DNA of 64,000 bases from Escherichia coli (GTDB lineage Bacteria > Pseudomonadota > Gammaproteobacteria > Enterobacterales > Enterobacteriaceae). Shown piece by piece: positions 1,529 to 47,051 of the stretch. Position 1 is the stretch's first letter; each line of letters begins with the position of its first letter. The notes below the pieces were generated by a model, which searched no databases, was not told the DNA's origin, and saw only the letters and a list, made by a program, of their open reading frames with translations. Where the stretch lies: NCBI RefSeq assembly GCF_003019035.1, contig NZ_CP027447.1; one strand, given 5' to 3'. Position numbers and translations under genes: made by a program.

Positions 1529-2203
1529 CACTGTATGCAAATCGAGTCGCTCAAGAGCGGCTTTTTTTGTGTCTGAAATCACCCATATCCGTGCAGTATA
1601 TAGGCCTGCCAGAAAAGCAATTCAGTATTCTTCATTTTGTAGTCGATGGTCCCAAGTTTGCTCTGGCTGGAAGCTGCATCGTCCACATTACGTGGGCAGG
1701 GTGGTTTCGCTATGCTACTTGAACGTTTTGACCATGTGGCTCAGGTAGCATATCAAAAGACGTCATTTTGTCTCCACGCCCACCTTGGTGAACATTCAAT
1801 AAATAGTTTCGGTCGAGAGCAGTTATGTAGGGCTAGCAGACGAAATGCGCAGACATCTTGTTGAAGACAATTTTACTGACCACCTGAGAACGCTATTCTA
1901 CCGAATAATATTTATTATCTTGGTGAATAATGATGATTACCTGTGTAACTATGGTTTTATGCTGATGGGACCGGCAGTACAATTTCTGTAGTGTACTCGC
2001 AATTTCAGGTCTCTGGCGTTTATTCTGGTGCAAAGGATGTATGTGATGAAAACTTTGCTACCATGCCATTAAATGCGACCAATATCGGATTATCCATCAG
2101 TTGCTTGTTGTAGATTTCATTGGTTATAAAAATGCAAGGTGTAAAAGATGAAATTTATAATTATTAGTTAAGTGGCTAGTTTTATAGTAATTTAGACAAT
2201 AGG

Positions 2204-4874: not shown

Positions 4875-5804
4875 TCACCCCCTAAAAACCTCTTTCCGAT
4901 GCCACTCCACAAATCCCTCATAAGGGTAATTTTTACGTACCTGCGGCAACGCAATAGTTTTCCCGTCAAAATCCCAGAATAGTTTCTCAACGATCCCTCC
5001 GCCGTTTACCGCATCTGATACCAGTACCCGCATATTTTCATCCAGGCCAATCGATCCTTTATCAAAGGCTTTATGGTGTATTGCACAAAGCGCCAGACCA
5101 TTAGGAATTTCACAAGGACCGCCGTGCTGTTTCCATTTTATATGCGCCGCTTCCAGCGCGACGGTGGTGTCGTCGTGGCGCATATTAAAGCCACATATCG
5201 CGCACTGGTAGTTATAAGCGCGTAATACATTTTTGCGAAATAACGGGTCGCGCTGTTTACGGATTTGCTGGAGATCAAAACCCAGTTCGTCAGCAATTTC
5301 TTCCTGAATACTCTCGGTGAAGTGCGCTTCGAGTATCTGTTGCGCCAGAGTATTGATGAGTTTTTTATTGCCAGTTACCAGGGCGTAGTGCTGTTCATCG
5401 AAACCGCCTGCAACGTGGTATTCAGTCAGTTCCTTCACTGGTGGTTGTCGGCTGCTCCCTGCTGTTGAGCAAAGCCCGGCATTGTGTAATTGCCAGAATC
5501 CGTCGCCTTGTAATCGCCAGAACGGCATATCAGGTCGGTACTGTGAACGCTGTGGCCCAAAACGTTCCAGTAAATTGTGCAGAGGTTCGTAGATTTCCGA
5601 TCCATAATCGAAAAGGCGCGGATGCCCATTCAGGTATCCCGCTAATACGTATAGCAGTAACAATGGTTTATGCGGCGCGCGCTGTTCACCCTTGTGCCAG
5701 ATTTTTATATTGGCAATTGCCTGCTGTAGCGATTTACTGGAAGCCATTGATATCCCTGGCAGTGAAATAATTGCGATCATGCTCGCAAATTTTCTGCTGT
5801 TCAA
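4875..5804 (-). CDS. HNH endonuclease domain protein with uncharacterised N-terminal domain (McrA-like architecture)
   Basis: ORF track. C-terminal ...YQCAICGFNMRHDDTTVALEAAHIKWKQHGGPCEIPNGLALCAIHHKAFD... is an HNH signature (C-x2-C ... H ... N ... C-x2-H). The true start may be the internal Met near 5747. Confidence 0.6.
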   Translation of the reverse strand: MNSRKFASMIAIISLPGISMASSKSLQQAIANIKIWHKGEQRAPHKPLLLLYVLAGYLNGHPRLFDYGSEIYEPLHNLLERFGPQRSQYRPDMPFWRLQGDGFWQLHNAGLCSTAGSSRQPPVKELTEYHVAGGFDEQHYALVTGNKKLINTLAQQILEAHFTESIQEEIADELGFDLQQIRKQRDPLFRKNVLRAYNYQCAICGFNMRHDDTTVALEAAHIKWKQHGGPCEIPNGLALCAIHHKAFDKGSIGLDENMRVLVSDAVNGGGIVEKLFWDFDGKTIALPQVRKNYPYEGFVEWHRKEVFRG

Positions 5805-29258: not shown

Positions 29259-29891
29259 TTATCCCGCGAATCCTTCCTGCATAGCCTTAATCATCAGCCA
29301 GGAGGAGGTCGCGCCTGGATCCTGATGGCCCACACTGCGAGCGCCGAGATAACTGGCACGTCCTTTTTTCGCCTGCATATTGATGGTGTTATCGACGGCT
29401 GTTGCCGCATCTTGCACCATCGTATTCAGCAGAAGGGAAGGCGACATTCCGGCTTGCAGGTTCTTTTTGGCTTCGTGGAGAACTGGAACCCAGACATCAC
29501 ACAGAGTTTTATCCCTTTGTTCTGCTTTTCCTCGTGCGATAACGCCTGCAATCCCTTCTTCCAGACACGCCAGCCACTCTTCCAGAGTTAATTCTGTTCT
29601 GGCTCCCACTGCCGCAGAAGCGCGAATAAATAATGTGCCGTAAAGAGGACCACTGGCACCGCCAACGCTGGAAAGTAGTTTCATGCCAGTATTTTTAAGA
29701 ATATTGCCAATATGCTGACGTTCAATGTCGGGCAACGTCGCTTTCACTGCACTGAAACCACGATTCATATTGAGGCCGTGGTCGGCATCACCAATATCTC
29801 TGTCAAGTGCGGTTAGAAAATCTTGTTGTTCAGTGAGATGTGCAGCACAACTCTCCAGCCAGGCAATAACATGTTTGTTTTGAATTTTCAT
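29259..29891 (-). CDS. Dihydroxyacetone kinase ADP-binding subunit DhaL-like
   Basis: 210-aa ORF with ...DRDIGDADHGLNMNRGF... DhaL signature; sits between the DhaK-like and DhaM-like genes. Confidence 0.8.
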   Translation of the reverse strand: MKIQNKHVIAWLESCAAHLTEQQDFLTALDRDIGDADHGLNMNRGFSAVKATLPDIERQHIGNILKNTGMKLLSSVGGASGPLYGTLFIRASAAVGARTELTLEEWLACLEEGIAGVIARGKAEQRDKTLCDVWVPVLHEAKKNLQAGMSPSLLLNTMVQDAATAVDNTINMQAKKGRASYLGARSVGHQDPGATSSWLMIKAMQEGFAG

Positions 29892-29903: not shown

Positions 29904-30974
29904 TTAACATCCCCAACGAAGCGCTGGCGTATTGACCGGGGCATCCCAAAGTTGCAAAAACTCTGGGGTACATTTCAGCAGGCTGATGGAAAATCCGGCC
30001 ATATCTAATGATGTACAATAATTACCGACCAACTGGCGGCTAATTTTAATTCCCTGGCGCTGTGCGGCGCACATAAATACCCTGGCTACACCATATAACT
30101 CTGATTCAGGCGTGCTGCCAAGTCCGTTAATTAACACAATATATTCGGCATTTTGATCGAATGACTCATTCATTGATGATGCGTCAATCCATCCCCCCGC
30201 ATGGCGATCCCAATGGCGTAATGTGCGTCGCCAGGGGGTATTATCCAGTAATTGCGCTATCACGCTGTCGATTAAAGTGTTCAGATCTTGCAAAGTGCGG
30301 CGTTCAATGCCGGGTTCACCGTGGATCCCGACACCAAATTCGATTTCATTATCAGCCAGTTCAAATGAGGGTTTTCCCGCGGCGGGAACCGTACAGGCTG
30401 ACAGTGCGATGCCAAAAGAACGGGTGGCATTGTTAACATTTTTGCCAAGTTGCTCGCACTGCCCCAGGTTATATCCCTGAAGTGCAGCCGCACCGACAAT
30501 CTTTTCAACAAAAACTGTACCCGCAACACCGCGACGTCCGGCTGTATACAGGCTATCTTTTACCGCTACATCATCATCAATAATGACGGTCCCAACGGCG
30601 ATGCCTTCTTCGTGTAACATCTCGACTGCCGTTTCGAAATTCAGAATATCGCCTGTGTAATTTTTGATGAAAAACAGAACGCCAGAACCATTATCAACCG
30701 CTTTGGCACATTCGATCATTTGATCTGGCGTGGGCGATGTGAAGATTTCACCAGGACATGCACCGGTTAACATTCCCATACCGACAAAACCTGCATGCAG
30801 TGGTTCATGGCCTGAGCCGCCGCCTGAAATCAGCGCCACTGCATTATCGGTTTGTTTGCACCACACATATCGGGGCGCGTAATTTGCCTGCAGGTGTGGC
30901 CAGGTGGCGATGAGTCCTTCCATTTGTTCTGTGACAACAGAATCAATCTGGTTAATTAATTTCTTCATAGTCAT
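29904..30974 (-). CDS. Dihydroxyacetone kinase substrate-binding subunit DhaK-like
   Basis: 356-aa ORF with ...ISGGGSGHEPLHAGFVGMGMLTGACPGEIFTSP... DhaK signature. Confidence 0.8.
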   Translation of the reverse strand: MTMKKLINQIDSVVTEQMEGLIATWPHLQANYAPRYVWCKQTDNAVALISGGGSGHEPLHAGFVGMGMLTGACPGEIFTSPTPDQMIECAKAVDNGSGVLFFIKNYTGDILNFETAVEMLHEEGIAVGTVIIDDDVAVKDSLYTAGRRGVAGTVFVEKIVGAAALQGYNLGQCEQLGKNVNNATRSFGIALSACTVPAAGKPSFELADNEIEFGVGIHGEPGIERRTLQDLNTLIDSVIAQLLDNTPWRRTLRHWDRHAGGWIDASSMNESFDQNAEYIVLINGLGSTPESELYGVARVFMCAAQRQGIKISRQLVGNYCTSLDMAGFSISLLKCTPEFLQLWDAPVNTPALRWGC

Positions 30975-31293: not shown

Positions 31294-32376
31294 ATGGATA
31301 AGATTATTATAAGTCCGGCTAAATATATCCAGGGAAATGGTTCTCTGGATAATATTGCTACATATGCGGCGAGTTTGGGAACAGAACCATTAATTATTGC
31401 AGATGAATTTGTGACCGGTCTGGTTGGTGACAGAGTAAGCCAGAGCTTTGCAAGAGAAAACATTATTGCGGATCTTGATGTTTTTTGCGGTGAATGCTCG
31501 CAAAATGAAATTTCTCGAATTCGTGAGAAATTTAATCAGCGTAAATATAATGTCGTTATTGGTATTGGCGGCGGTAAAACGTTGGATACGGCAAAAGCCG
31601 TAGCGTATTACCAAAAAATTCCGGTGGTGGTGGTGCCGACAATTGCTTCCACAGATGCGCCAACCAGTTCTCTGGCAGTAATTTACACCCCGGAAGGCCA
31701 GTTTAGCGAATATCTGTTTTTCCCGAAAAACCCGGATATGGTGATTATGGATACTGGCGTCATTTCAGCCGCGCCAGTGCGTCTGCTGGTGGCCGGTATG
31801 GGAGATGCATTGTCAACCTGGTTTGAGGCGAGAGCCAATCAGGCGTCAGGAAAAGCCACAATGGCAGGTGGGGCGTCGACACTGGCGGCACTGGCTATTG
31901 CCCGACTCTGTTATACCACGCTACTGGAAGATGGCTATAAGGCAAAAGTCGCGGTTGAACAAGGTGTTAGCACCAAAGCGGTAGAGAATATTATCGAAGC
32001 TAATACCTATCTTAGCGGCATTGGATTTGAAAGTAGCGGCCTGGCGGCAGCTCATGCCATTCATAACGGCATGACGCAACTGGAGGAATGCCATCATTGC
32101 TACCACGGTGAAAAAGTGGCATTTGGCGTCCTGGTACAGCTCGTACTGGAAAACGCACCACAGGAGGAAATTGAAACCGTACTCAATTTCTGCCATAGCG
32201 TTGGTCTGCCGACAAATCTTCATATGTTAGGCGTGAAGGAAATTAATAAAGATAAATTACGGGCAGTGGCTGAAGCAGCGACTGCTGAAGGGGAAACTAT
32301 CCATAATATGCCATTCGTAGTAACAGCGCAGGACGTTCTTTGCGCAATTTTAACTGCACATCATTTGGGACTTTAA
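31294..32376 (+). CDS. Glycerol dehydrogenase-like iron-containing alcohol dehydrogenase (GldA paralogue)
   Basis: 360-aa ORF, MDKIIISPAKYIQGNGSL... similar to the GldA N-terminus; divergent from the dhaKLM-like operon. Confidence 0.75.
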   Translation: MDKIIISPAKYIQGNGSLDNIATYAASLGTEPLIIADEFVTGLVGDRVSQSFARENIIADLDVFCGECSQNEISRIREKFNQRKYNVVIGIGGGKTLDTAKAVAYYQKIPVVVVPTIASTDAPTSSLAVIYTPEGQFSEYLFFPKNPDMVIMDTGVISAAPVRLLVAGMGDALSTWFEARANQASGKATMAGGASTLAALAIARLCYTTLLEDGYKAKVAVEQGVSTKAVENIIEANTYLSGIGFESSGLAAAHAIHNGMTQLEECHHCYHGEKVAFGVLVQLVLENAPQEEIETVLNFCHSVGLPTNLHMLGVKEINKDKLRAVAEAATAEGETIHNMPFVVTAQDVLCAILTAHHLGL

Positions 32377-32443: not shown

Positions 32444-33712
32444 ATGACCAGTAACTGGAAACGTTGGATCACGCTGGCGTTATGTGGTATTGCCGGAAGT
32501 GCAATATATAAATTGCCTTATTTACGGGAAACCTATTACGACGCGATGCAGCAGGCTACAGGAGCGACTAATGCTGAACTTGGTTTTCTAATGACAGCCT
32601 ATGGTCTGGTGAACTTTTTATTATATCTACCTGGCGGTTGGGCTGCCGATAGATTTTCTGCACGTAAATTAATGACCTTTTCATTAATTTCCACCGGGAT
32701 AAGTGGTTTTTATTATGCGACCTTCCCCTCGTATACTATGATCTGTTTGTTACATGCACTTTGGGCTGTTACAACCGTATTTACGTTTTGGGCCGTGTGT
32801 GTGCGAATTATTCGTACCCTGGGAACCAGCGAAGAACAAGGTCGCTTATACGGTTACTGGTTTCTGGGTAAGGGATTAACCTCCATTGTACTGGGATTTC
32901 TTTCCGTGCCGGTATTTGCCAAATTTGGCGAAGGTGTTGATGGTTTACGGGCGACAATTATTTTTTATTCCGTAGTGACTATTCTGGCCGGTGTTTTAGC
33001 TTGGTTTGTTTGTCAGGATGAAACGCACAGCGAAGATAAAGCGAATTTCCGTCTGGCAGATATGGCATTCGTGCTGAAAATGCCGACGGTTTGGCTGGCA
33101 GGTGTTGTGACCTTTTGTATGTGGTCAATTTATATCGGCTTTGGCATGGTCACGCCGTATCTCACGCAGATCCTGCATATGGGCGAATCGGAAGTGGCAG
33201 TTGCCAGTATTCTTCGCGCCTATGTGTTATTTGCGATGGGGGGATTAATTGGCGGACAACTGGCCGACCGCTGTGCGTCACGCACGCGTTTTATGATTTA
33301 CGCCTTTATCGGCATGATTGTCTTTACTACCGTTTATTTCTTCCTGCCCGGTGAGTCGCGCTACGTCACTATTGCGCTGGCGAATATGGTTGCGTTGGGC
33401 GTGTTTATTTACTCTGCGAATGCCGTGTTCTTCTCAATTATTGATGAGGTTCGGATCCCGGCAAAAGTCACAGGGACTGCTGCGGGTCTGATCTCTTTAC
33501 TGACTTATTTCCCGGAAATCTACTGCTACACGATGGTGGGCAATATGGTCGACCGCAAACCGGGTATTGCCGGTTATCAGGATGTTTTCCTGTTCATGTT
33601 GGTTTGCGCATTCATCGGCCTTATCGCCGCACTGGTCCTCCAGCGTGTGAATCGTAAAAGTAAAAATCAAGTCAATGAAATCACTGAAAACAATGCGGAT
33701 TGCGCATCCTGA
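32444..33712 (+). CDS. MFS-type transporter
   Basis: 422-aa polytopic hydrophobic ORF. Confidence 0.65.
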   Translation: MTSNWKRWITLALCGIAGSAIYKLPYLRETYYDAMQQATGATNAELGFLMTAYGLVNFLLYLPGGWAADRFSARKLMTFSLISTGISGFYYATFPSYTMICLLHALWAVTTVFTFWAVCVRIIRTLGTSEEQGRLYGYWFLGKGLTSIVLGFLSVPVFAKFGEGVDGLRATIIFYSVVTILAGVLAWFVCQDETHSEDKANFRLADMAFVLKMPTVWLAGVVTFCMWSIYIGFGMVTPYLTQILHMGESEVAVASILRAYVLFAMGGLIGGQLADRCASRTRFMIYAFIGMIVFTTVYFFLPGESRYVTIALANMVALGVFIYSANAVFFSIIDEVRIPAKVTGTAAGLISLLTYFPEIYCYTMVGNMVDRKPGIAGYQDVFLFMLVCAFIGLIAALVLQRVNRKSKNQVNEITENNADCAS

Positions 33713-35094
33713 GTCTGACGGGGGAACCAATGGTGGACATGATTAATGAAAGTGCACGGCAAACGCCAGTCATTGCACAAACGGACGTTCTGGTTATCGG
33801 GGGCGGTCCGGCAGGATTAACGGCGGCGATAGCGGCGGGGCGGCTAGGTGCCAGAACCATGATTGTTGAGCGTTACGGCTCACTAGGCGGCGTATTGACG
33901 CAGGTTGGTGTGGAAAGTTTTGCCTGGTATCGCCATCCGGGGACGGAAGATTGTGAAGGGATTTGTCGTGAATATGAAGGCCGCGCGCGAGCATTGGGCT
34001 TCACGCGACCAGAACCTCAGTCAATTAGCGAAGTTATAGATACTGAAGGATTTAAAGTTGTTGCCGATCAGATGATAACGGAAGCTGGCGTTGAGCCGTT
34101 ATATCACTCCTGGGTTGTGGATGTGATCAAGGAAGGGGATACGTTATGCGGTGTTATTGTCGAGAACAAATCAGGACGAGGGGCAATTCTGGCGAAAAGA
34201 ATCGTCGATTGCACGGGGGATGCTGATATTGCTGCTCGTGCAGGCGCGCCCTGGACGAAACGGGGAAAGGACCAACTGATGGGCGTCACCGTGATGTTCA
34301 GTTGCGCAGGTGTCGATGTGGCGCGCTTTAACCGTTTTGTTGCGGAAGAACTTAAGCCGACCTACGCGGATTGGGGAAAAAACTGGACGATTCAAACCAC
34401 GGGCAAAGAAGACCAGATGTTTAGCCCTTATATGGAGGATATTTTTACCCGGGCGCAGCAGGATGGTGTGATTCCAGGCGACGCCCAGGCGATTGCCGGA
34501 ACCTGGTCAACCTTTTCTGAAAGCGGCGAAGCGTTTCAGATGAATATGGTGTACGCCTTTGGTTTTGACTGTACCGATGTCTTCGATTTAACCAAAGCAG
34601 AAATCGCCGGAAGGCAGCAAGCATTATGGGCAATTGACGCTCTACGCCATTATGTTCCGGGCTTTGAAAATGTACGGTTACGCAATTTTGGCGCCACGCT
34701 GGGTACACGTGAATCACGGCTTATTGAGGGGGAAATACGTATTGCTGATGATTACGTCCTTAATCAGGGGCGTTGTTCGGACAGTGTAGGGATTTTCCCG
34801 GAATTTATTGATGGTTCCGGTTATCTCATTTTGCCAACGACCGGGCGTTTCTTTCAGATCCCCTATGGCTGTCTGGTGCCACAAAAAGTGGAGAACCTTT
34901 TGGTCGCCGGTCGCTGTATTTCCGCAGGCGTAGTTGCACATACTTCTATGCGCAACATGATGTGTTGTGCCGTTACCGGTGAGGCCGCAGGCACTGCCGC
35001 CGTGGTTTCGCTACAGCAACATTGCACCGTGCGTCAGGTTGCTATCCCTGATTTGCAAAACACGCTGCAACAGCAGGGCGCACGTCTGGCATAA
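33700..35094 (+). CDS. FAD-dependent oxidoreductase (paralogue 1)
   Basis: N-terminal dinucleotide-binding motif DVLVIGGGPAGLTAAIAA; about 460 aa; paralogous to 44263..45633. Confidence 0.7.
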   Translation: MRILSLTGEPMVDMINESARQTPVIAQTDVLVIGGGPAGLTAAIAAGRLGARTMIVERYGSLGGVLTQVGVESFAWYRHPGTEDCEGICREYEGRARALGFTRPEPQSISEVIDTEGFKVVADQMITEAGVEPLYHSWVVDVIKEGDTLCGVIVENKSGRGAILAKRIVDCTGDADIAARAGAPWTKRGKDQLMGVTVMFSCAGVDVARFNRFVAEELKPTYADWGKNWTIQTTGKEDQMFSPYMEDIFTRAQQDGVIPGDAQAIAGTWSTFSESGEAFQMNMVYAFGFDCTDVFDLTKAEIAGRQQALWAIDALRHYVPGFENVRLRNFGATLGTRESRLIEGEIRIADDYVLNQGRCSDSVGIFPEFIDGSGYLILPTTGRFFQIPYGCLVPQKVENLLVAGRCISAGVVAHTSMRNMMCCAVTGEAAGTAAVVSLQQHCTVRQVAIPDLQNTLQQQGARLA

Positions 35095-35394: not shown

Positions 35395-36936
35395 ATGCAA
35401 TATTTAAAAAAACGCTTTTCTTTGATTGAACTGAATGTGTTTATCCCAGCAATATTATTTATTGCGGTAATCATTCTGTGTTTGACGATATATCCACAAG
35501 ATACCAGCCGGTATATAAATAAAATACATCATTTTTTAACCTGGGAAATGGGCGGGATTTTTCTGGTCATGACTTTTCTGGTTGTACTTTGTTGTCTGTG
35601 GCTGGCCTTCTCACGTTATGGCGATATCTTGTTAGGTCAGTCGGGAGAAAAGCCTGACTTCAGCTTGTTAACCTGGCTTGGACTTATTTTTACTTCTGGA
35701 ACGGGGGGCAGCTTGTTATATCTGGCCTCTGTAGAGTGGATTTGGATCATTCAGCAACCGCCTTTTGGCGCGGCAGCAGGAAGCGCTCAGGCTGCTCGTT
35801 GGGCCTCTGCTTATGGCATGTTCCATTGGGGGCCGTCCGCATGGGCATGGTATCTGATTTGTGCCGTTCCCATTGGTTGGTTTATGCATGTTAAGAAAAC
35901 GAACTCATTAAAGGTCAGTGATTTATGCCGTGGGTGTCTGGGGGCACGTGCTGATGGTTTTTGCGGGCATTGTGTGAATTTTTTCTACATGTTTGGTTTG
36001 CTCGGCGGCGCGGTAACGTCTCTGGCGCTGGGAACGCCGATGATTTCTGCCGTATTTTGCCATGTGTTCCATCTGGATCCTGCCGGGCAGTTTATCAATG
36101 TCATGGTTATTTTTATCTGGACGCTAGTGCCATTATTAATTCTCTTTTTTGGACTTAAAAAAGGTGTGGCATGGGCCAGTAACTGGAATATTCGTGCCGA
36201 TATTTTTATGCTACTGGCAATACTGATTTGTGGACCGACAGCTTTTATACTTAACCAATCAATTGATGGTTTCGGCCTGATGCTGCAAAATTTTGTAGCG
36301 ATGAGTTTAAGTACCGATGCTATTGGTCGTAGCGGATTTCCACAGATGTGGACCGTATTTTATTTTTCATGGTGGGTCGTGTATGCCATCCCATTCGGTT
36401 TATTTATCGCCCGTATTTCAAAAGGAAGGACGATCCGGCAATTGATTGTATGTGGAACTCTGGCAGGTTCATTGGGATGCATGGTTTTTTACATGGTACT
36501 GGCTAATTTCGGCTTATCGTTGCAGACAACTCATGTCATCGATTTTGTTCCCATACTTAACGAACAAGGGCGAGGCGTTGTCGTTTCTCGTTTACTGGAG
36601 CAGCTACCCGCAAGTCAGGTGTTTTTGGTTGCTTTTGGGGCTATAGCATTAATTTCATATATTACCGGACACTGTACTGTGGGTTATGCCCTCGGTTTTG
36701 CGACGCAAAAACGGGCAGATAGTGAGAGTGAACCGGCATTCTGGAACGTGGCATTTTGGTTGATTATGACCGGAATCGTCGCCATCACACTCTATCTTCT
36801 TGATGCGCAAAGTCTGCAACCGCTACAAACGGTCTCTATACTGGCCGGACTACCGCTTTGCGGCGTAGTGTTTATTTTATTGAAGAGTTTTTTGACACAG
36901 TTTGCGGCTGAAGAGAAAACCGCGAGAGATGAATAA
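35395..36936 (+). CDS. BCCT-family transporter
   Basis: ORF track 35251..36936, trimmed to the Met at 35395 (aggaga SD upstream). BCCT-like signature ...FYFSWWVVYAIPFGLFIARISKGRTIRQL... Confidence 0.7.
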   Translation: MQYLKKRFSLIELNVFIPAILFIAVIILCLTIYPQDTSRYINKIHHFLTWEMGGIFLVMTFLVVLCCLWLAFSRYGDILLGQSGEKPDFSLLTWLGLIFTSGTGGSLLYLASVEWIWIIQQPPFGAAAGSAQAARWASAYGMFHWGPSAWAWYLICAVPIGWFMHVKKTNSLKVSDLCRGCLGARADGFCGHCVNFFYMFGLLGGAVTSLALGTPMISAVFCHVFHLDPAGQFINVMVIFIWTLVPLLILFFGLKKGVAWASNWNIRADIFMLLAILICGPTAFILNQSIDGFGLMLQNFVAMSLSTDAIGRSGFPQMWTVFYFSWWVVYAIPFGLFIARISKGRTIRQLIVCGTLAGSLGCMVFYMVLANFGLSLQTTHVIDFVPILNEQGRGVVVSRLLEQLPASQVFLVAFGAIALISYITGHCTVGYALGFATQKRADSESEPAFWNVAFWLIMTGIVAITLYLLDAQSLQPLQTVSILAGLPLCGVVFILLKSFLTQFAAEEKTARDE

Positions 36937-36991: not shown

Positions 36992-38134
36992 TTAACTCAG
37001 GACTGCATGAAAATACCCTGCCAAATTTTCTCCGAGACGAATTAAATTATTTTCCCCCTGACTCAGCGCGGTGGGTAAATCACAAGGACCATTGACGACG
37101 GAAAAACAGGCTTCGATTCCACACTGGCGTAACTCATTCAAATCAAGTTGATCATCGATATACCCGGCAATTGCGATAACCGGAACGCCCATCATCTGGG
37201 CGATTTTGGCCGCCCCCACAGGTGCTTTGCCATTCAGGCTTTGACGGTCTAATTTACCTTCACCGACAATCGCCAATGCTGCATATTTTAAATGTTGGGT
37301 ATATTGAATCGCTTCCAGCACGAGCGAAATACCCGGTTGTAAGCGAGCATCGAGAAAAGCCATCAAGGCCGCGCCAACGCCGCCAGCCGCCCCAGAACCG
37401 GGTATCGTATCGACTTCTTTACCACAACAACGGTAGATGCAACGGGCATAGTTTTTCATTCCCTGTTCCAGTTGCTCAAGGTTGTCAGCACTGGCCCCTT
37501 TTTGTTGAGCAAAAACCCGAGTCGCGCCGTTATCGCCGGTTAGTGGGTTGGTGACATCACAGGCTGCAATAAATTTCACATTTTTCAATCGTGGATCGAG
37601 GTGCTGTAAGTCAATGTGGTGAATTGCCGCCAGCCCCATCCCATTAACGGAGACTGATTGCCCTTCGGCGTCTGTAAACGATGCGCCAAGTGCCGACATC
37701 AACCCAATACCGCCATCATTTGTAGCACTGCCACCCAGGCATAGAATAACGGTATCAATATTGTGTTCCAGGGCGGCGAGAATAAGTTCGCCAGTGCCAA
37801 ACGACGTCGTATAAAGGGGAGAACGCTGGACAGGAGAAACCAGTTCCAGCCCTGAAGCTTGTGCCAGTTCTATCACTGCGGTGGTTTGGTTGCCTAAAAT
37901 ACCGTATTGCGCATGTATTGATTCTCCAAGCGGTCCGGTGACTTTTTTAGTGTAAAACGTACCGTCAGTCGCATGAATGAGTGTTTCGAGCGTGCCTTCG
38001 CCGCCGTCAGCCACGGGCAAACACACCAGTTGGCTGCCAGGCAGGACCTTGCGCCAGCCGGTTGCCAGCGCTTCGGCGACTTTCCATGCGGGAAGGCATT
38101 CTTTAAAGGAGTCGGGGGAGATAACTATCTTCAT
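36992..38134 (-). CDS. Glycerate kinase (GlxK/GarK family)
   Basis: 380-aa ORF, MKIVISPDSFKECL... typical glycerate kinase N-terminus. Confidence 0.8.
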   Translation of the reverse strand: MKIVISPDSFKECLPAWKVAEALATGWRKVLPGSQLVCLPVADGGEGTLETLIHATDGTFYTKKVTGPLGESIHAQYGILGNQTTAVIELAQASGLELVSPVQRSPLYTTSFGTGELILAALEHNIDTVILCLGGSATNDGGIGLMSALGASFTDAEGQSVSVNGMGLAAIHHIDLQHLDPRLKNVKFIAACDVTNPLTGDNGATRVFAQQKGASADNLEQLEQGMKNYARCIYRCCGKEVDTIPGSGAAGGVGAALMAFLDARLQPGISLVLEAIQYTQHLKYAALAIVGEGKLDRQSLNGKAPVGAAKIAQMMGVPVIAIAGYIDDQLDLNELRQCGIEACFSVVNGPCDLPTALSQGENNLIRLGENLAGYFHAVLS

Positions 38135-38208
38135 AGCAGGTCTCTCAAAATAGGGGAATGGGGCAGGGCAACGAGTGAACGAAGGGAACCGGTGGTTCCC
38201 TTAATTCA

Positions 38209-39096
38209 TTATTTACGGATAGTGAAATTGGCTTGTGTTTCAAGCGCCCGAATTAGCGCAGAATGATCCCACTCTTTACCACCAAGCGCGGCGCAGGCGC
38301 TAAATAATTGTTGCGTCATAGCCGTGTTAGGAAGCGGGGTATTCAACAGGCGAGCATTCTCCAGTGCCAGATTCAGATCTTTTTGATGCAGGCTAATTCG
38401 AAAACCAGGGGCGAATGTCCCTTTGATCATCCGTTCGCCATGAACTTCCAATACACGAGAGGAAGCAAAACCCCCCATCAGAGCTTCACGTACGCGGGCG
38501 GGATCGGCACCTGATTTACTGGCAAAAAGCAGGGCTTCAGCCACCGCTTCAATATTCAGTGCAACAATAATTTGGTTAGCGACTTTGCACGTTTGACCAT
38601 CACCGATGTTACCGACCAGAGTGATATTTTTACCCATCAATTCCAGAATCGGTTTGATCTGTAAATAAACCTCTTCACATCCGCCAACCATAATGGAAAG
38701 CGTCCCGGCTTTCGCGCCAACTTCACCGCCAGAGACGGGCGCATCGATATATTCCGCGCCTCCCGCGATAATACGTTGTGCAAATGCTTTGGTGGCAACC
38801 GGGGAAATTGAACTCATATCAATGACAATTTTCCCGTGGCTTAAACCGTGTATTACGCCATAGTTGGGATGAAAAAGAACATCCTCAACATGTGGGGTAT
38901 CAGGGAGCATGGTGATGATGACCTCACACTCCTGCGCGACTTCACGCGGTGTAGAGCAAACAATGCCACGTTCACCAATAAGCTCTTGCGGTGCAGGTTC
39001 AAAATGCGCTGAAAAATAAAGAGTATGTCCGGCTTGTTGTAAATTATAAGCCATCGGCTTACCCATTATGCCGGTGCCGATAAATCCAATATTCAT
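38209..39096 (-). CDS. Tartronate semialdehyde reductase-like (GlxR/GarR family)
   Basis: 295-aa ORF, MNIGFIGTGIMGKPMAYNL... NAD-binding motif. Confidence 0.75.
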   Translation of the reverse strand: MNIGFIGTGIMGKPMAYNLQQAGHTLYFSAHFEPAPQELIGERGIVCSTPREVAQECEVIITMLPDTPHVEDVLFHPNYGVIHGLSHGKIVIDMSSISPVATKAFAQRIIAGGAEYIDAPVSGGEVGAKAGTLSIMVGGCEEVYLQIKPILELMGKNITLVGNIGDGQTCKVANQIIVALNIEAVAEALLFASKSGADPARVREALMGGFASSRVLEVHGERMIKGTFAPGFRISLHQKDLNLALENARLLNTPLPNTAMTQQLFSACAALGGKEWDHSALIRALETQANFTIRK

Positions 39097-39113
39097 GATA
39101 AATACCTCAGGGA

Positions 39114-39896
39114 TTAAAATTGAGTCTCGTTTTTTAGCCAGCGTAGACTTTCAGTCGTTGTCGTAGATGGAATATATTCGCAACCAATCCATCCCTGATA
39201 ACCAATCTGGTCTATATAATTTAACAACCACGGGTAATTAATTTCTCCCGTCCCTGGTTCATGACGCCCAGGGTTATCGGCTAATTGAATATGTCCAATG
39301 TTATTCAGGTTGTTTTTGATTGTTGTAGCAATATTCCCTTCCATGATTTGCATATGATAAATATCGTATTGGTAGCGCAAATCAGGATGTTTTACATCAT
39401 GAATAATATTGAGAGCTTGTCTGGTATTGTTAACAAAAAAACCGGGAATATCTTTTGTATTAATGGCTTCCAGAACTAACTTTATCCCATGAGAAGCCAA
39501 TTTATCTACCGCATAGCGCAAATTTTCGACCAGTGTTTCATGACATTGTTCATGCGAATAACCACCTGGATGTTTTCCTGCAAGGCAATTAACTTGTGAA
39601 CAATTAAGGGCCAATGCATACTCTATTGCCCTGGAAACGCCCTCCTGAAATTCTTTTGCCCGACCAGGATGACATGCAATACCCCGTTCACCCTCTTGCC
39701 AGTTACCCGCAGGAAGATTAAACAGAACCTGCGTCAGATTATGTTGATGCAGTTGCGAAACTAACTCATCTGCAGAAAAGTCATAGGGGAAAAGATACTC
39801 AACGCCGTGGAATCCTGCGTGACTTGCCTGTGCAAAACGTTCAATAAATGGATACTCGGTAAAGAGCATAGATAAATTTGCTGCAAACTTTGCCAT
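39114..39896 (-). CDS. Hydroxypyruvate isomerase-like (Hyi family)
   Basis: 260-aa ORF; TIM-barrel isomerase-like; positioned between the gcl-like and glxR-like genes as in the K-12 gcl operon. Confidence 0.7.
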   Translation of the reverse strand: MAKFAANLSMLFTEYPFIERFAQASHAGFHGVEYLFPYDFSADELVSQLHQHNLTQVLFNLPAGNWQEGERGIACHPGRAKEFQEGVSRAIEYALALNCSQVNCLAGKHPGGYSHEQCHETLVENLRYAVDKLASHGIKLVLEAINTKDIPGFFVNNTRQALNIIHDVKHPDLRYQYDIYHMQIMEGNIATTIKNNLNNIGHIQLADNPGRHEPGTGEINYPWLLNYIDQIGYQGWIGCEYIPSTTTTESLRWLKNETQF

Positions 39897-39908: not shown

Positions 39909-41648
39909 TTATAAATCGAGAATTTCTTCAAATTCTGTGACTTTATTAATGTCAGGTCCCATAGCGATATTAGTCACGCGTTCAGTAATAATTTCCACAA
40001 CAACAGGTACGTGAAATTCGTCACGCAAACGCTGGGCTTCTTGCAGTGCAGGCGCAATATCCTGTGATGCGAATACGCGAATCGCTTTACATCCTAATCC
40101 TTCAACCACAGCTTTATGATCAACGCCATAACCATTAATTTCTGGAGCATTAATATTTTCAAATGACAGTTGAACGCAATAATCAATATCAAATGCACGT
40201 TGTGATTGACGAATCAAACCAAGATAAGCGTTGTTAAGTAAAATATGGATATACGGAAGATTAAATTGTGCGCCGACGGCTAATTCTTCAATCAAGAATT
40301 GAAAATCGTAATCACCGGATATTGCCACAACGGGAACAGATGGATCAGCTTTTACCGCGCCCAGTGCTGCGGGCATTGTCCAGCCTAGCGGCCCAGCCTG
40401 ACAGGCATTAATCCAGTGGCGTGGGCGGTAAACATGTAAAAATTGGTTTGCGGCGATTTGCGCCAGACCAATTGTCGAAATATAGCGTGTCTCCGGTCCG
40501 AAAACCTTATTCATTTCGTGATACACGCGCTGCGGTTTAATTGGATTGCAGTCAAAGTCTGAACGACGAAGCATTGTGCGTTTACGCTCGGCACATTCGG
40601 CAATCCAGCGACTGCGGTCTTTCAGTTCTCCACGTGACTTCATATCACGGGCGACCTGAATAAATAGCGTTAAGGCGCTTTCAGCATCAGAAACAATGCC
40701 CAGATCCGGCGCAAATATCCGGCCAATTTGTGCAGGTTCGATATCAACATGAATGAATTTGCGGCCTTCGGTGTAGGTCTCAATGGCTCCGGTATGACGG
40801 TTTGCCCAACGGTTACCGATACCAAAAACAAAATCGGAGGCCAGATAACTGGCGTTACCATAGCGATGACCCGCCTGACATCCCATGCGACCAATCATTA
40901 GGGGATGATCATCTGATAATGCGCCCCAACCGCGTAAGGTTTGAATGACGGGAACGCCAGTTAACTCGACAAACTCACGCAACAATTCACTCGCTTCGGC
41001 GTTAATAATGCCACCGCCAGCGATGATGACGGGCTTTTCGGCGCCATTTAGCATTTCTAATGCGCGTACGGCCTGGGCCCGTGTTGCCTGAGGTTGCCAG
41101 GGGGTTAGTGGCTGATAGAGATCGATATCAAACTCAATTTCGGTCATCTGAACATCAAAAGGGAGATCTAAAAGAACCGGGCCAGGGCGGCCTGAACGCA
41201 TTTCCCAGAAGGCTTTCTGGAATATCCCCGGCAACTGACCCGCTTCGAGAATTGTGCGAGCCATTTTGGTTACTGGCGTGGCGATAGCCTCAATATCGAC
41301 GGCCTGGAAATCTTCTTTATGAAGTTTTCCTACGGGAGCTTGACCAGTAATGCAGAGAATAGGAATGGAATCCGCGGAGGCGGAATAAAGCCCCGTAATC
41401 ATATCAGTGCCCGCAGGGCCTGATGTGCCAATACACACGCCAATATTGCCATTCTGACTGCGGGTGTAACCTTCAGCCATATGCGAGGCGCCCTCAACAT
41501 GACGGGCCAGAATATGATCAATACCGCCTGATTTTTTCATCGCGGCATAGAGTGGGTTGATTGCTGCGCCGGGTACACCAAAAGCAACGCTAATGCCTTC
41601 TTTTTTCAGTATTTCTACTGCAGCTTCGATTGCACGCATCCTCGCCAT
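39909..41648 (-). CDS. Glyoxylate carboligase-like ThDP enzyme (Gcl paralogue)
   Basis: 579-aa ORF; N-terminus [64 protein letters not shown] parallels E. coli Gcl, including Val51 where other ThDP enzymes have the catalytic Glu. Confidence 0.75.
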
Positions 41649-42026
41649 ACATTATTTCTCCTGATATTTACGCTGAGTTGAATAGTCAGTCAATTTTGGA
41701 ATTTAACGACGAAATATCTTTGAGGAAATAAAAGGGCAGAACAAATTTCGCTGCACTGTTTCACAGTGAAACAACTCGTATGCCTGTGTTGTTTCAGTTT
41801 GAATAATGATAAATATCAAACGCAAAGATTTCAGATGTTGTTGGCAGTTTTAAAATTTATCTAATGTATTATTCGTTTTTTATTGCTTTAACGGTTATTC
41901 TTTCTAATGTATGTATGGTTACATTGTTGATAAGGTCTGTTTTTGTAATGATCCAGACTAGATATTATTGCGTTTGATCAAGCTTACTGGCATAGCATTC
42001 TGATACAAGTTCTGAAAATGACTTGA

Positions 42027-43976
42027 ATGGATATTATTATAATGAATAAAGAGTCGTATCATAATGATCTAAAAAATAAATGGAAAATGTTTGTTAAGCA
42101 TGGTTGGGTCGCGACAAATTCGACTAATCATGTGATGCTGAGGTCATGGCAAAAATGTCTCAAGCATTGTGACCCTCGCCACTGGAACACGCCTGTCAAA
42201 GCTTCCGGGCAAACATTGCAGACGATTTTTTCTCGTAACGAAGAGTTTATTAGAATTTCACAAAGAGTTGTTGAAGACCATTTCACTCTGGCTGGTGACG
42301 ACCGGTTGGCATTTTTGATCATTGACCCACACGGCTGGGTTCTATCGTTGAATGCAGCAGGCGATTATTCCAGTCAATTGCGAGAGTTAGGAATTGAATC
42401 TGGTATGTCATGGGCCGAAGATGGCATTGGAACCAATGTATATAGTCTTTGTCGGGAAACAAATTTATATACACAACTGGAAGGAGCAGAACATTTTAGT
42501 GAACAGCTACATTGTTATGCGATGAGCGCTGCTCCGGTCATTGATTATTATGGTAATATCCATGGATACATTGTATGTATAATTGAAACTACCGCCGAGC
42601 TTGTTAAATTAAAAACATCATATTCATGTGCAACAGAAATCGCTAATTATATCTATATTGAGAATGAACAAAAGTTAATAAACAAAGTACTTTGCCAGCA
42701 TAATGCTGTGATTGAATGCATGGATGACGGTTTTATTTGTTGGAATAGTCATTCTTTAATTACGATGGTTAATTCTCAAGCACAAACACTACTGAATATT
42801 GATAAAGAAAGTTTAATTGGTCAGAACATCCGAAAAGGATTCGTATTTCCGCCGATTTTGAATGAGGCAATTACACAACGGAACAAACTATCGCAAAAGC
42901 AAATTGTCCTCGAATGCCGTGGCGAATTTATTGAACTTATGGTTACCCTTCGCCCGTTAAGCGATGGTTCGTTTTTACTTTTTCTTCATCCATTAGACAA
43001 AATCAGGAAAATAGCCCAACAGCAAATAAGCACTAATGCAAATTTTACCTTTGACAGTTTACATGCGGCTTCAGGTGGTATGAAGCAGGTATTACTTATC
43101 GCTCGCCGGGCAATTAAATCCATCTCTCCGATTTTGATCAATGGCGAAGAAGGTGTGGGAAAATTGAGTTTGGCGATGGCAATACATAATGAGAGCGAGC
43201 AACGTGATGGGCCATTTATTTCTGTAGATTGTCAGATGCTATCACCAGAAAATATCTTACACGAACTTCTTGGCTCTGATGTTGGCCCTTCGCCATCGAA
43301 ATTTGAACTGGCTCATAATGGCACCTTATATCTGGATAAAGTCGAATATCTATCAGGGGAAGTTCAGAGTGTTTTATTGAAAGTATTGAAAACGGGGCTT
43401 GTTACTCGCTCAGACAGCCATCGTTTGATCCCCGTACGCTTTCGCCTGATTACATGTACCAGTAGTTCGTTACGTGAGTACGTGCAACAAGGGGCTTTTA
43501 GCCGACAGCTATATTATGAGATCTCCATGAATGAAATTGAAATTCCGCCATTGCGCAAACGTCGTGAAGATCTCAAGCAAATGATTGACGATATTATTGA
43601 TAAGTATCAGGAGCGCACTCGAAAAAAAATGACAATCACGCCTGACGCAAATTCAGTTCTGCTTGAGTACCGTTGGCCTGGAAACATCTCCGAGTTCAAA
43701 AATCGAATGGAGAAGGTATTTATTAACTGCAATCGGCTTGTCCTCGGATTAGAGAATATTCCTCTGGATATCCGACAAAATAACAGTAGTGGCGACGATG
43801 ATATCCCTCATCTTACTTCACTGGCAGAATTGGAGATGCAAGCTATTGAGCATACATGTCGTGTCTGCGAATGGAATCTAACTAAAGCAGCTGAAGTATT
43901 AAAAATTGGTCGTACAACATTATGGCGCAAGCTTAAAATCTATAATCTCTATCCAAATGTTGAGCATGCAGATTGA
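42027..43976 (+). CDS. AAA+ bacterial enhancer-binding-protein-like regulator lacking a GAFTGA motif (DhaR/TyrR-like)
   Basis: 649-aa ORF; central AAA+ domain (GEEGVGKL Walker A-like, NGTLYLDKV Walker B-like) and C-terminal Fis-type HTH (...GRTTLWRKLKIY). No GAFTGA is seen in the translation. Confidence 0.65.
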   Translation: MDIIIMNKESYHNDLKNKWKMFVKHGWVATNSTNHVMLRSWQKCLKHCDPRHWNTPVKASGQTLQTIFSRNEEFIRISQRVVEDHFTLAGDDRLAFLIIDPHGWVLSLNAAGDYSSQLRELGIESGMSWAEDGIGTNVYSLCRETNLYTQLEGAEHFSEQLHCYAMSAAPVIDYYGNIHGYIVCIIETTAELVKLKTSYSCATEIANYIYIENEQKLINKVLCQHNAVIECMDDGFICWNSHSLITMVNSQAQTLLNIDKESLIGQNIRKGFVFPPILNEAITQRNKLSQKQIVLECRGEFIELMVTLRPLSDGSFLLFLHPLDKIRKIAQQQISTNANFTFDSLHAASGGMKQVLLIARRAIKSISPILINGEEGVGKLSLAMAIHNESEQRDGPFISVDCQMLSPENILHELLGSDVGPSPSKFELAHNGTLYLDKVEYLSGEVQSVLLKVLKTGLVTRSDSHRLIPVRFRLITCTSSSLREYVQQGAFSRQLYYEISMNEIEIPPLRKRREDLKQMIDDIIDKYQERTRKKMTITPDANSVLLEYRWPGNISEFKNRMEKVFINCNRLVLGLENIPLDIRQNNSSGDDDIPHLTSLAELEMQAIEHTCRVCEWNLTKAAEVLKIGRTTLWRKLKIYNLYPNVEHAD

Positions 43977-44262: not shown

Positions 44263-45633
44263 ATGGAATTTTATCTGGAACCCGCTCGTAATATACCTGT
44301 ACTGGCAACCACGGAAGTGTTAGTTGTTGGTGGTGGTCCATCGGGTATTGCCGCAGCAATGAGTGCCGCTCGTGAAGGCGCAGCTACTATGCTGATTGAA
44401 CGTTTCGGTTGTTTTGGCGGAATGATGACAACGGCTGGCGTCGAGTCAATTGCCTGGTGGCGTCATGAAAATACGGTAGAGTCAGGTGGACTGGCACGCG
44501 AAATAGAAGAAACGGCAAAATCAATGGGGGCGTCCAGCCCTGAGCCGCAATCGAATAGTCAGGCTATTAACGCCGAGCGTTTCAAACTGGTTGCGGATGC
44601 AATGCTTGAACAGGCAGGTGTGCGCCGCGTACTACACATTACCGCCGTTGATGTTATTAAGCAGGGCAATAATTTACTCGGCGTAATAACAGAGAGTAAA
44701 TCTGGTCGTCAGGCTATTTTGGCGAATGTCATTATTGACTGTACTGGCGATGCCGATATTGCATGGTTTGCCGGAGCACCATTTATTAAGCGTGAACGTG
44801 AAGACCTGATGTGTATGACAACCGTTTTTAGTTGCGCAAATGTCAATAAAAACGCGTTCATGCAAAATATTAAGAGCACGGAACCTAAATATGGAGACTG
44901 GGGGGCGGATGAAGAAAATAAAAACTGGTCTTATGATGTTCATGAATCTTGTCGCGATATGTTTAGCCCTTATCTGGGTAAAGTCTTTGCGAAAGGAAAG
45001 TCGGCAGGAATTATTCCAAAAGATGTGACGTTAGGCGGTTCCTGGAGTACGGTCACCGAGTATGGTGATGCGAATTACTTGAACGTTGTCAGCATCCCTG
45101 CCGTCGATTGTACGGATGTTTTTGACCTGACGCGTGCAGAAATAGAAGGCCGCAAGCAAGCCATGCAGGCGATTGAAGCGTTGCGTCAATTCCAGCCAGG
45201 ATTTGAACAGGCACAATTAAAAAATTTCGGTATGACGGTGGGAACAAGAGAATCAAGACATATTATTGGGCGAGTCCAGCTTACGGAAAATGATATTTGT
45301 AATGAGGGACGTCATGCGGATTCAATAGGGGTATTCCCTGAGTTTATAGATGGAAATGGTCATCTTAAATTACCTCTTGAAGCGAACTATTTTCAAATCC
45401 CTTATGGCGTAATGATTCCGCAGCAAGTTGAAAACCTGTTGGTTTGCGGACGGGCAATCGATGCAGATAATTTCGCCTATGCGACAATCCGTAATATGGG
45501 GTGTTGTATTGTCACTGGAGAAGGTGCAGGGACTGCCGCTGCTATTGCCATTAAAAATAACACTACCGTTTCACAGGTAGATATTCAGACGGTACAGGAA
45601 CGCTTACAGCAAAATGGCGTAAAAGTCTTTTAA
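44263..45633 (+). CDS. FAD-dependent oxidoreductase (paralogue 2)
   Basis: 456-aa ORF, EVLVVGGGPSGIAAAMSAA...; clearly paralogous to 33700..35094 along the whole length. Confidence 0.7.
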   Translation: MEFYLEPARNIPVLATTEVLVVGGGPSGIAAAMSAAREGAATMLIERFGCFGGMMTTAGVESIAWWRHENTVESGGLAREIEETAKSMGASSPEPQSNSQAINAERFKLVADAMLEQAGVRRVLHITAVDVIKQGNNLLGVITESKSGRQAILANVIIDCTGDADIAWFAGAPFIKREREDLMCMTTVFSCANVNKNAFMQNIKSTEPKYGDWGADEENKNWSYDVHESCRDMFSPYLGKVFAKGKSAGIIPKDVTLGGSWSTVTEYGDANYLNVVSIPAVDCTDVFDLTRAEIEGRKQAMQAIEALRQFQPGFEQAQLKNFGMTVGTRESRHIIGRVQLTENDICNEGRHADSIGVFPEFIDGNGHLKLPLEANYFQIPYGVMIPQQVENLLVCGRAIDADNFAYATIRNMGCCIVTGEGAGTAAAIAIKNNTTVSQVDIQTVQERLQQNGVKVF

Positions 45634-45647
45634 CAGGGAATAAAGTT

Positions 45648-47051
45648 ATGAGAGAAAAACCCAGTTTTTATGTCGCGCTTACACCGATCATTTTTATGAT
45701 GATCGTGTTGGTTGTTGGCATCGGTGTTATGGGCTGGCCTGCCAGCGTCTGTTTATTAATTTCAGCGGCGTTTTCCTGCATTATTGCAATGGCTAAGCTG
45801 AAATATACCTGGGATGAAATCCAGGGGTTTATTATCGATAAGATTTCGGCGGTGATGGCACCGGTACTTATCGTTATTTTCGTTGGCTTTATGGTCGCGA
45901 CATGGAGCTATGCAGGTACACTGCCGATGCTGGTTTATTACGGTATGTTACTGGTTGCGCCCGCATGGCTTTATGCCATAGCGTTTTTTCTGAACGCAAT
46001 ATTGTCCTATGTTTCCGGGGCATCATGGGGATCTGTCGCTTCTATTGGTGTTGCATTAATGGGCATCGGTTCCGGCTTACATGCCGATCTTCCAATTCTG
46101 GCGGCAGCCATTGTTACCGGGGCTTATTTTGGCGACAAACTTTCACCGTTAAGTGATACCACTAACCTGACTTCAGCGGTAACCAAAACTAAACTTTATG
46201 ATCTGATTAAATATCTACTCTGGACGACCATCCCATCAACGATTATTAGCCTGCTGTTTTTTACCTGGCTGGGAATGATTCATACTTCTACGGGCTCTAT
46301 TTCACCAGAAAGCATGCAGATGCTGGTACAGCTCAAAGAGTTATATAAGTTTGGTCTGTTACCGCTACTGCCTATGCTTATTGTTCTGTGCTTTACCTTT
46401 TTGCGTTTGCCTACAGTACCGGCATTATTAAGCAGTGCGTTCGTGGCCGTATTGGTTGGATGGCTGTATCAAGGTTTCCCGCTGGCCGAAGGTATTAAGG
46501 CCACAATGAGTGGTTTCCGTCTGACGATGATCACTGATTCAACGACGCTGTTACCTTCTGTGAAAGAACTGCTTGAACAAGGCGGCCTGAATAATCAGGG
46601 CGGATTCCTGTCATTTATTATCTGCGCCATGATGTTTGCTGGCATCCTGACGGGAACAGGAATGATGGATGTCACATTACAAAGTGCGGCAAACAAAATA
46701 AAAAGTGCTTTTGGCGCTATTCTGGCAAGCGGTGTTTTAGCGATCATCATTAACTTACTTACCGGTTCTGATGGTTTGAATAAGATTGTTATATCTGAAT
46801 TGATGATGAAGAAATTCGAAGATCTTAATTTATCACCGTTAGTCTTAGCCCGAACGCTGGAAGATTTTGGCACCATGAGCGCGCCAATTATTCCGTGGTC
46901 AGCTGCCGGATTGTATATGGCGACAACACTAGGCGTGCCGACGTTTAGTTACTTGCCGTACTGTGTATTCTGTTTCTGCTCGATGATATTTGCGTTGATC
47001 TATGCTTCTACAGGTTTCCGTTTACTGCGCTTCAACGAAGCAAAGGCCTGA
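45648..47051 (+). CDS. Polytopic membrane transporter (NhaC-like family)
   Basis: 467-aa highly hydrophobic ORF immediately downstream of oxidoreductase paralogue 2. Family assignment is tentative. Confidence 0.55.
   Translation: MREKPSFYVALTPIIFMMIVLVVGIGVMGWPASVCLLISAAFSCIIAMAKLKYTWDEIQGFIIDKISAVMAPVLIVIFVGFMVATWSYAGTLPMLVYYGMLLVAPAWLYAIAFFLNAILSYVSGASWGSVASIGVALMGIGSGLHADLPILAAAIVTGAYFGDKLSPLSDTTNLTSAVTKTKLYDLIKYLLWTTIPSTIISLLFFTWLGMIHTSTGSISPESMQMLVQLKELYKFGLLPLLPMLIVLCFTFLRLPTVPALLSSAFVAVLVGWLYQGFPLAEGIKATMSGFRLTMITDSTTLLPSVKELLEQGGLNNQGGFLSFIICAMMFAGILTGTGMMDVTLQSAANKIKSAFGAILASGVLAIIINLLTGSDGLNKIVISELMMKKFEDLNLSPLVLARTLEDFGTMSAPIIPWSAAGLYMATTLGVPTFSYLPYCVFCFCSMIFALIYASTGFRLLRFNEAKA

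Follow-up and report, generated by a model that had tools for sequence, protein, structure and literature searches.

The Gcl family (EC 4.1.1.47) comprises the ThDP enzymes that convert two molecules of glyoxylate into tartronate semialdehyde and CO2, with FAD bound non-catalytically, and the functional role of Ile393 in these enzymes was reportedly addressed by Kaplun et al. in 2008. In E. coli, GimA is an island whose original description is said to be that of Huang et al. in 2001 and whose IbeA protein has long been described as a brain-endothelium invasin. Within the ThDP decarboxylase family, Glu51 is found in 94% of the members, and the valine borne by glyoxylate carboligases at standard position 51 is considered as "characteristic of the entire family" (PMC3534367). 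As for GimA, it was depicted as a locus of 20.3 kb and 46.2% G+C encompassing four operons, namely a PTS/dihydroxyacetone kinase operon, an operon for glycerol dehydrogenase and transporters, the glyoxylate genes, i.e. the operon gcxKRCI, and ibeRAT (Homeier et al., 2010, PMC2878320). Under the designation PAI-iraD (GimA), an element of 20-21 kb and 46% G+C was further reported in strains RS218, IHE3034, APEC O1, LF82, NRG857c, UM146, and UTI89 (PMC7545054).

The whole stretch of DNA analysed here, hereafter the window, is a 64,000-nt piece of E. coli chromosome, a 7.2-kb core of which matches the SMS-3-5 chromosome at 99.8% identity, many other strains being alike. The gene order runs uxuB-uxuR-yjiC-iraD, then an island, then hypT-iadA-yjiG-yjiH, and is identical in SMS-3-5; the G+C content of the island contrasts with the 49-50% of its flanks. 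In the RefSeq annotation of SMS-3-5, the island reads ptsP-dhaL-dhaK, glycerol dehydrogenase, MFS, FAD oxidoreductase, BCCT, glycerate kinase, reductase, hyi, gcl, dhaR, ibeA, and nhaC, and it is bordered on the right by hypT-iadA-yjiG-yjiH-kptA-iatD. The island and its genes are positioned as follows in the window:

26874-47051, strand not applicable: whole GimA island, about 20.2 kb, 46.1% G+C, between iraD and hypT, matching the SMS-3-5 annotation.
26874-29255, minus strand: PtnI/DhaM-like EIIA-HPr-EI fusion.
29259-29891, minus strand: DhaL.
29904-30974, minus strand: DhaK.
31294-32376, plus strand: glycerol dehydrogenase.
32444-33712, plus strand: MFS transporter.
33730-35094, plus strand: CglE, second PF12831 FAD-dependent oxidoreductase, 51% identical to IbeA.
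35395-36936 (RefSeq coordinates), plus strand: CglC, BCCT-family transporter, assigned at family level only (TIGR00842 356 bits, below the cut-off of 408).
36992-38134, minus strand: glycerate kinase, last gene of the operon (TIGR00045 550 bits vs. a cut-off of 168; RefSeq).
38209-39096, minus strand: tartronate semialdehyde (2-hydroxy-3-oxopropionate) reductase (TIGR01505 383 bits vs. a cut-off of 341; RefSeq).
39114-39896, minus strand: hydroxypyruvate isomerase (hyi), 13 nt downstream of gcl (TIGR03234 389.9 bits vs. a cut-off of 353; RefSeq hyi).
39909-41648, minus strand: glyoxylate carboligase, 579 aa, ATG start (RefSeq gcl; WP_012311859.1 in SMS-3-5; GimA3 operon gcxKRCI).
42027-43976, plus strand: IbeR, DhaR-family regulator of the enhancer-binding type, divergent from gcl (NF008485 DhaR 986 bits; RefSeq start at 42042).
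44263-45633, plus strand: IbeA, 456-aa PF12831 FAD-dependent oxidoreductase, GimA marker gene (PF12831 315 bits; RefSeq ibeA).
45648-47051, plus strand: IbeT, NhaC-family antiporter (TIGR00931 381 bits).

The insertion site, a size of about 20 kb, a G+C content of about 46%, the four operons, and ibeA are all those of GimA, and the match of the island gcl in UM146 (4674038-4675777) falls within the published GimA of that strain, at 4660918-4681265 (PMC7545054). The island is GimA and there is nothing new in the gene or the island; as a discovery this matters little, the gene, its name, and the island having been published as early as 2001 and the gene being already designated gcl in RefSeq. 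The carboligase gene is presumably gcxC of gcxKRCI.

Positions 39909-41648 correspond exactly to one ATG-initiated ORF on the minus strand, within which lies the peptide singled out by the original prediction as having valine in place of the catalytic glutamate:

41484-41513, minus strand: ten-residue Val51-bearing peptide, residues 46-55, with the Val51 codon at 41496-41498.

In a MAFFT alignment of five proteins, the comparison ones being the products of gcl, ilvI, ilvB, and poxB from K-12 (NC_000913.3), Val51 shares its column with Val51 of K-12 Gcl and with the glutamate of the RHE motif of IlvI, IlvB, and PoxB; confronted with E. coli Gcl and the ALS large subunits, the island protein thus exhibits Val and no Glu at the canonical position, which, together with the ORF and the codon position, bears out the predicted substitution. 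The region around residue 51 is ungapped and anchored by the invariant R49, H50, and A54, the motif being RH-V-EGA in the island protein and K-12 Gcl, RH-E-Q in IlvI and IlvB, and RH-E-E in PoxB. Over 578 residues, the island protein and K-12 Gcl are 70% identical with 84% positives and zero gaps (BLASTP), hence the identical numbering of the two proteins. The substitution had also been presented as the hallmark of Gcl, with which both the published family description (PMC3534367) and the valine present at position 51 in 26/26 Gcl sequences compared here agree.

The peptide match is no chance motif, since the whole protein matches the NCBIfam Gcl equivalog HMMs at E=0, namely NF008431 with 1077 bits for a cut-off of 791 and TIGR01504 with 1055 bits for a cut-off of 711; the models for ALS, pyruvate oxidase, and other ThDP enzymes all remain below their own cut-offs. 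A PDB sequence search retrieved six Gcl sequences with E values of 1e-276 to 1e-282, 2pan and 8i01 being at about 1e-282. Regarding the cofactor and active-site positions, compared across the 26 Gcl sequences, the island protein is Gcl-type at 32/32, including V51, I393, G445-D446, N472-N473, and L476-G-L-I479, and the GD...NN ThDP/Mg motif is kept. With position 447 set aside, its residues at these sites are identical in the 25 other Gcl sequences; Tyr447 of the island protein is the majority state, the Phe447 of K-12 being the exception. With Val51, the HMM scores, the 70% identity, and these 32 positions, the view of a true Gcl rather than an ALS-like enzyme stands, and the ORF very probably encodes a functional glyoxylate carboligase (EC 4.1.1.47), i.e. 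the GimA (ibeA) island copy of E. coli, as far as can be judged from sequence. A search of the accessible literature returned no published biochemical assay of the island Gcl. What the Val51 check adds is that this copy shows all the sequence features expected of an active Gcl and is under purifying selection, as detailed below.

The operon gcl-hyi-glxR-glycerate kinase begins with this gene, the three downstream genes lying on the same strand over 36992-39896, and the gcl-hyi-glxR trio is kept in 79/80 related loci. The hyi product also scores above the cut-off for 2-oxo-tetronate isomerase (376.8 vs. 325). By analogy with the crystallised E. coli enzyme, to which it is 70% identical, the island Gcl would convert two molecules of glyoxylate into tartronate semialdehyde and CO2, ThDP being used without the usual activating glutamate and with Val51 instead; Hyi would interconvert hydroxypyruvate and tartronate semialdehyde, the reductase would turn tartronate semialdehyde into D-glycerate, and glycerate kinase would direct D-glycerate to glycolysis. 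Because gcl heads this operon, it is reasonable to consider glyoxylate as an intermediate of an island-encoded pathway, and this part of the original prediction can soundly be drawn from the operon; on the side of supply it finds no counterpart, no glyoxylate-producing enzyme being recognisable among the island genes.

Upstream of the operon, the regulator gene ibeR is separated from gcl by the following region:

41649-42026, strand not applicable: divergent gcl/ibeR intergenic region, 378 bp (sequence inspection).

In this region, an AGGAGA Shine-Dalgarno sequence precedes the gcl ATG by 9 nt, and positions 41758-41772 form a perfect 7-1-7 palindrome, GTTTCAC-T-GTGAAAC. The identity between IbeR and K-12 DhaR amounts to 33%, and neither protein possesses the GAFTGA loop, IbeR having GPSPSK in its place. 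As IbeR is a member of the enhancer-binding-protein family, a sigma-54 site was sought; no -24/-12 pattern occurs within the gcl/ibeR intergenic region and the window-wide counts are those of chance. DhaR itself acts at a sigma-70 promoter. Scans for sigma-70 promoters and for terminators gave no excess over shuffled sequence. We infer that IbeR is likely the local regulator of the gcl operon.

Relatives were collected by a scan with one genome per species, 80 loci being used, and a neighbour-joining tree was drawn. The closest ones are found in a Pluralibacter MAG (91% identity), in Citrobacter sp. NCU1 (87%), and in two members each of Serratia (81-83%), Photobacterium (82%), and Vibrio (79-80%), while the remaining Gcl proteins, among them those of Raoultella, Pseudomonas, and most Vibrio, are 70-74% identical and K-12 Gcl 69%. 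Together with the E. coli island alleles, these eight relatives form a single clade of 579-580 aa proteins, apart from the core E. coli Gcl, and in Photobacterium sanctipauli both types of Gcl occur, with one copy each (L008 and L049). The island gcl has a GC3 of 0.41 vs. 0.54 for the core gcl. Since it belongs to a separate clade, the island gcl is, according to the tree, no recent duplicate but either a xenologue or a lineage of ancient origin; the designation of paralogue, initially attached to this true Gcl, is accordingly less accurate than that of xenologue. A recent tandem or segmental duplication of the core gcl was likewise considered and rejected on the clade structure.

All 14 GimA proteins were searched by tblastn against the 80 gcl loci. 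An IbeR-like regulator adjoins gcl in 5/8 clade loci vs. 0/72 other Gcl loci, and PF12831 flavoproteins of the CglE/IbeA type, one or two per locus, are encoded in addition in four of the five regulator-bearing loci, those of Pluralibacter, Serratia sp. H1w, S. microhaemolytica, and V. mediterranei, accompanied by a BCCT transporter in three of these four, i.e. all but Pluralibacter. In Citrobacter sp. NCU1, the regulator, dhaKLM, and gldA are kept, with no flavoprotein within 10 kb. This distinctive neighbourhood, free of allantoin genes, is also what could be expected from a Gcl-like carboligase of changed specificity, which would act on another 2-oxo acid or aldehyde (hydroxypyruvate, glycolaldehyde, or pyruvate) coming from the dihydroxyacetone, glycerol, or flavoprotein enzymes of the island. 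The clade is indeed distinct, with 79-91% identity within it vs. 69-74% to other Gcl, and its C-terminus is 12-14 residues shorter than in most Gcl proteins. Such a shift is nonetheless improbable, as the active-site and cofactor positions checked are all Gcl-type, including Val51, Ile393, and LGLI, the Gcl equivalog cut-offs are well exceeded, and hyi, the reductase, and glycerate kinase are kept, which is sensible only downstream of tartronate semialdehyde. Besides, the clade gcl of P. sanctipauli comes directly after the gene for ureidoglycolate lyase (allA), tctABC being also there. Ureidoglycolate lyase is a classical glyoxylate producer, and its position before this gcl supports ordinary Gcl chemistry for the clade.

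As for the supply of glyoxylate, IbeA, CglE, and the transporters are candidates. The PDB sequence searches with IbeA and CglE returned matches to the FAD Rossmann motif only. The AlphaFold model of CglE, built from a six-sequence alignment, is mediocre (pLDDT 65.5), and Foldseek related it to generic two-domain flavoproteins with TM-scores of 0.3-0.45, which are uninformative as to substrate; a literature search on PF12831 gave nothing relevant to the substrate of these flavoproteins. A tentative reading of the gene linkage, for which the odds are rather against than in favour, is that Gcl proteins of the GimA-type clade may be the signature of a conserved catabolic module, in which a DhaR-like regulator and a BCCT, MFS, or NhaC transporter would be combined with one or two PF12831 flavoproteins (CglE and IbeA); by oxidation of an imported, possibly host-derived compound, the latter would yield glyoxylate and perhaps also a C3 unit to be processed via GldA/DhaKLM. 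IbeA would then be mainly a cytoplasmic enzyme of this pathway and the virulence phenotypes of the island would be metabolic. Once found, the source of glyoxylate could recast IbeA/GimA from an "invasion locus" to a nutrient-utilisation locus.

Within the 64,000-nt window, tblastn with the Gcl protein detected no other ThDP enzyme. Among the 5426 complete E. coli genomes scanned by sensitive blastn with the island gene, 5407 contain some gcl; in 5161 of them only the 60-80% identity class is found, which, at about 68% nucleotide identity, is the core gcl of the allantoin cluster. The island gcl, taken at an identity of at least 90%, is present in 246/5426, and the 7.2-kb core likewise in 246/5426, chromosomal and single copy in every case. 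The gcl places exceed the genomes by 249 and the best-matching genome, LR-28, has two, in keeping with the retention of both copies by strains that bear the island; the prediction of a "second" Gcl is in this respect correct, the core gene being located elsewhere in the genome. Some 4.5% of the complete E. coli genomes, for the most part of ExPEC, AIEC, and APEC lineages, would possess with the island an additional full glycerate pathway for glyoxylate.

The gcl of the window resembles the SMS-3-5/LR-28 allele and is 99.1-99.3% identical to the B2-type alleles of UM146 and IHE3034. Against the intact alleles of UM146 and A0 34/86, 11-16 synonymous and 3 non-synonymous differences were counted (dN/dS 0.06-0.08), and against the Pluralibacter homologue the synonymous sites are saturated, just 9% of the residues being different. 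As read from these substitution patterns, the island gcl is under purifying selection. Since the core gcl is present in nearly every E. coli genome, the island gene could be viewed as a redundant and decaying copy without function, a relic travelling with the virulence gene ibeA, all the more as reductive evolution of the GimA locus has been described (Homeier et al., 2010, PMC2878320) and as the island allele of strain AR_0077, with 99 substitutions and a single 13-bp deletion, is flagged as frameshifted in RefSeq. Even in this allele, however, 83 of the 99 substitutions are at third codon positions, and all 246 island matches are full length, with the three other alleles inspected being intact; together with the low dN/dS, this leads to reject a decaying pseudogene, the chance of which is minimal. 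The AR_0077 frameshift, which indicates that at least this strain can do without the gene, is a recent one-strain loss and no general decay.

Just as negligible is the chance of an ALS-like or other ordinary ThDP enzyme whose valine would be an alignment artefact, ALS large subunits being the next-best family (TIGR00118 with 426 bits, and 6lpi as best ALS in the PDB sequence search with E=7.6e-80) but every ALS model remaining far under its cut-off (538 bits for TIGR00118), and a reading as an AHAS large subunit is effectively refuted by these HMM scores, the ungapped region with R49, H50, and A54 alongside position 51, where no Glu stands, and a search of the vicinity of gcl in which no gene for a regulatory small subunit was found, adjacent or nearby.

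The island protein belongs to the same three-domain ThDP fold family as IlvI, IlvB, and PoxB, to which it is 22-31% identical and with which it shares the GD...NN motif and R49-H50, while these enzymes exhibit Glu instead of Val51 and Val instead of Ile393. K-12 Gcl (b0507; PDB 2PAN and 8I01) is much closer, as Val51, Ile393, GD...NN, LGLI, and the downstream hyi and reductase genes are common to both; the island Gcl differs in its length, 579 aa vs. 593 aa, its C-terminal tail being shorter, and in its genetic context. The core gcl belongs to the allantoin regulon, arranged as allS-allA-allR-gcl-hyi-glxR-allW-allB-ybbY-glxK in K-12, whereas around the island gcl lie the genes for a DhaR-type regulator, for dihydroxyacetone kinase and glycerol dehydrogenase, and for two PF12831 flavoproteins and three transporters. 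Beyond E. coli, the GimA-type clade includes the Gcl of the Pluralibacter MAG, Citrobacter sp. NCU1, Serratia sp. H1w, S. microhaemolytica, Photobacterium sanctipauli, P. pectinilyticum, Vibrio mediterranei, and Vibrio sp. 99-8-1; these eight relatives are 79-91% identical to the island protein and, as in the island, hyi and glxR come after gcl, the module of V. mediterranei having transposase genes on its flanks. Finally, the island presents no difference from GimA of ExPEC, with which it shares the iraD (yjiD)/hypT (yjiE) site near fim and uxu, the size, the G+C content, the gene content, and ibeA.

The ibeA genomic island (GimA) encodes two related FAD-dependent oxidoreductases.

44263-45633, ibeA, PF12831 FAD-dependent oxidoreductase
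33730-35094, cglE, PF12831 FAD-dependent oxidoreductase

Well known as an 'invasin' of brain endothelium, IbeA nevertheless has the appearance of a cytoplasmic flavoenzyme. It shares 51% identity with CglE, and in Serratia, Vibrio and Pluralibacter its homologues occur in linkage with gcl-hyi-glxR. Neither solved structures nor family matches pointed to a substrate for IbeA or CglE. Two loci in other genomes also drew notice.

Vibrio mediterranei locus L013, 1304-14414, module combining gcl-hyi-glxR with genes for a regulator, a BCCT transporter, a cyclophilin-like protein and two PF12831 flavoproteins
E. coli AR_0077 locus L086, 12001-13727, gcl (93.6% identity) of a GimA allele that has diverged

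Since the Vibrio module is bordered by IS110-family and DDE transposase genes, its mobility is suggested. As for AR_0077, third codon positions take 83 of the 99 gcl substitutions, and the frame is shifted by a single 13-bp deletion. The accessions of ibeA, dhaR and nhaC are the same as in the annotated comparison strain SMS-3-5, whereas those of the GimA genes near gcl differ, which suggests a recombinant island.

Regarding regulation, ibeR is transcribed divergently from gcl.

42027-43976, ibeR, passing the DhaR equivalog HMM
41758-41772, perfect 7-1-7 palindrome GTTTCAC-T-GTGAAAC, about 110 nt 5' of the gcl start codon

Despite passing this model, IbeR shares only 33% identity with K-12 DhaR. 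The GAFTGA loop that contacts sigma-54 is missing from IbeR, and the gcl/ibeR intergenic region (41649-42026) contains no sigma-54 promoter. The palindrome is a candidate binding site for a regulator.

Outside GimA, the window ends carry further genes, the first 4000 nt (1-4000) being low in G+C (33-37%).

626-1273, ORF of 215 aa, no NCBIfam match
2204-4252, ORF of 682 aa, no NCBIfam match
4875-5804, phosphorothioated-DNA-binding restriction endonuclease (437 bits), adjoining these two ORFs
59200-61173 and 61749-63698, 657-aa pentapeptide-repeat protein in a stretch of 39-40% G+C, with neighbouring genes

The low-G+C stretch with these two ORFs and the endonuclease may constitute a small defence locus. 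At the other end, the pentapeptide-repeat gene adjoins acyl-CoA dehydratase-activase-like and double-cubane-cluster reductase genes (yjiL/yjiM-like).

Back in the island, two further genes deserve attention.

39114-39896, hyi, passing two isomerase models
26874-29255, first GimA gene, 793-aa EIIA(Man)-like, HPr and Enzyme I fusion

The hyi product passes the models for both hydroxypyruvate isomerase (390 bits, cut-off 353) and 2-oxo-tetronate isomerase (377 bits, cut-off 325), so that context carries more weight in its assignment than the HMM by itself. In the fusion, the Enzyme I part is complete, PEP-binding domain included. This fusion suggests that, together with DhaK and DhaL, the protein makes up a PEP-dependent dihydroxyacetone kinase system that is self-contained; by comparison, K-12 dhaM has an annotated length of 1419 nt (about 472 aa), as against 793 aa for the GimA fusion.
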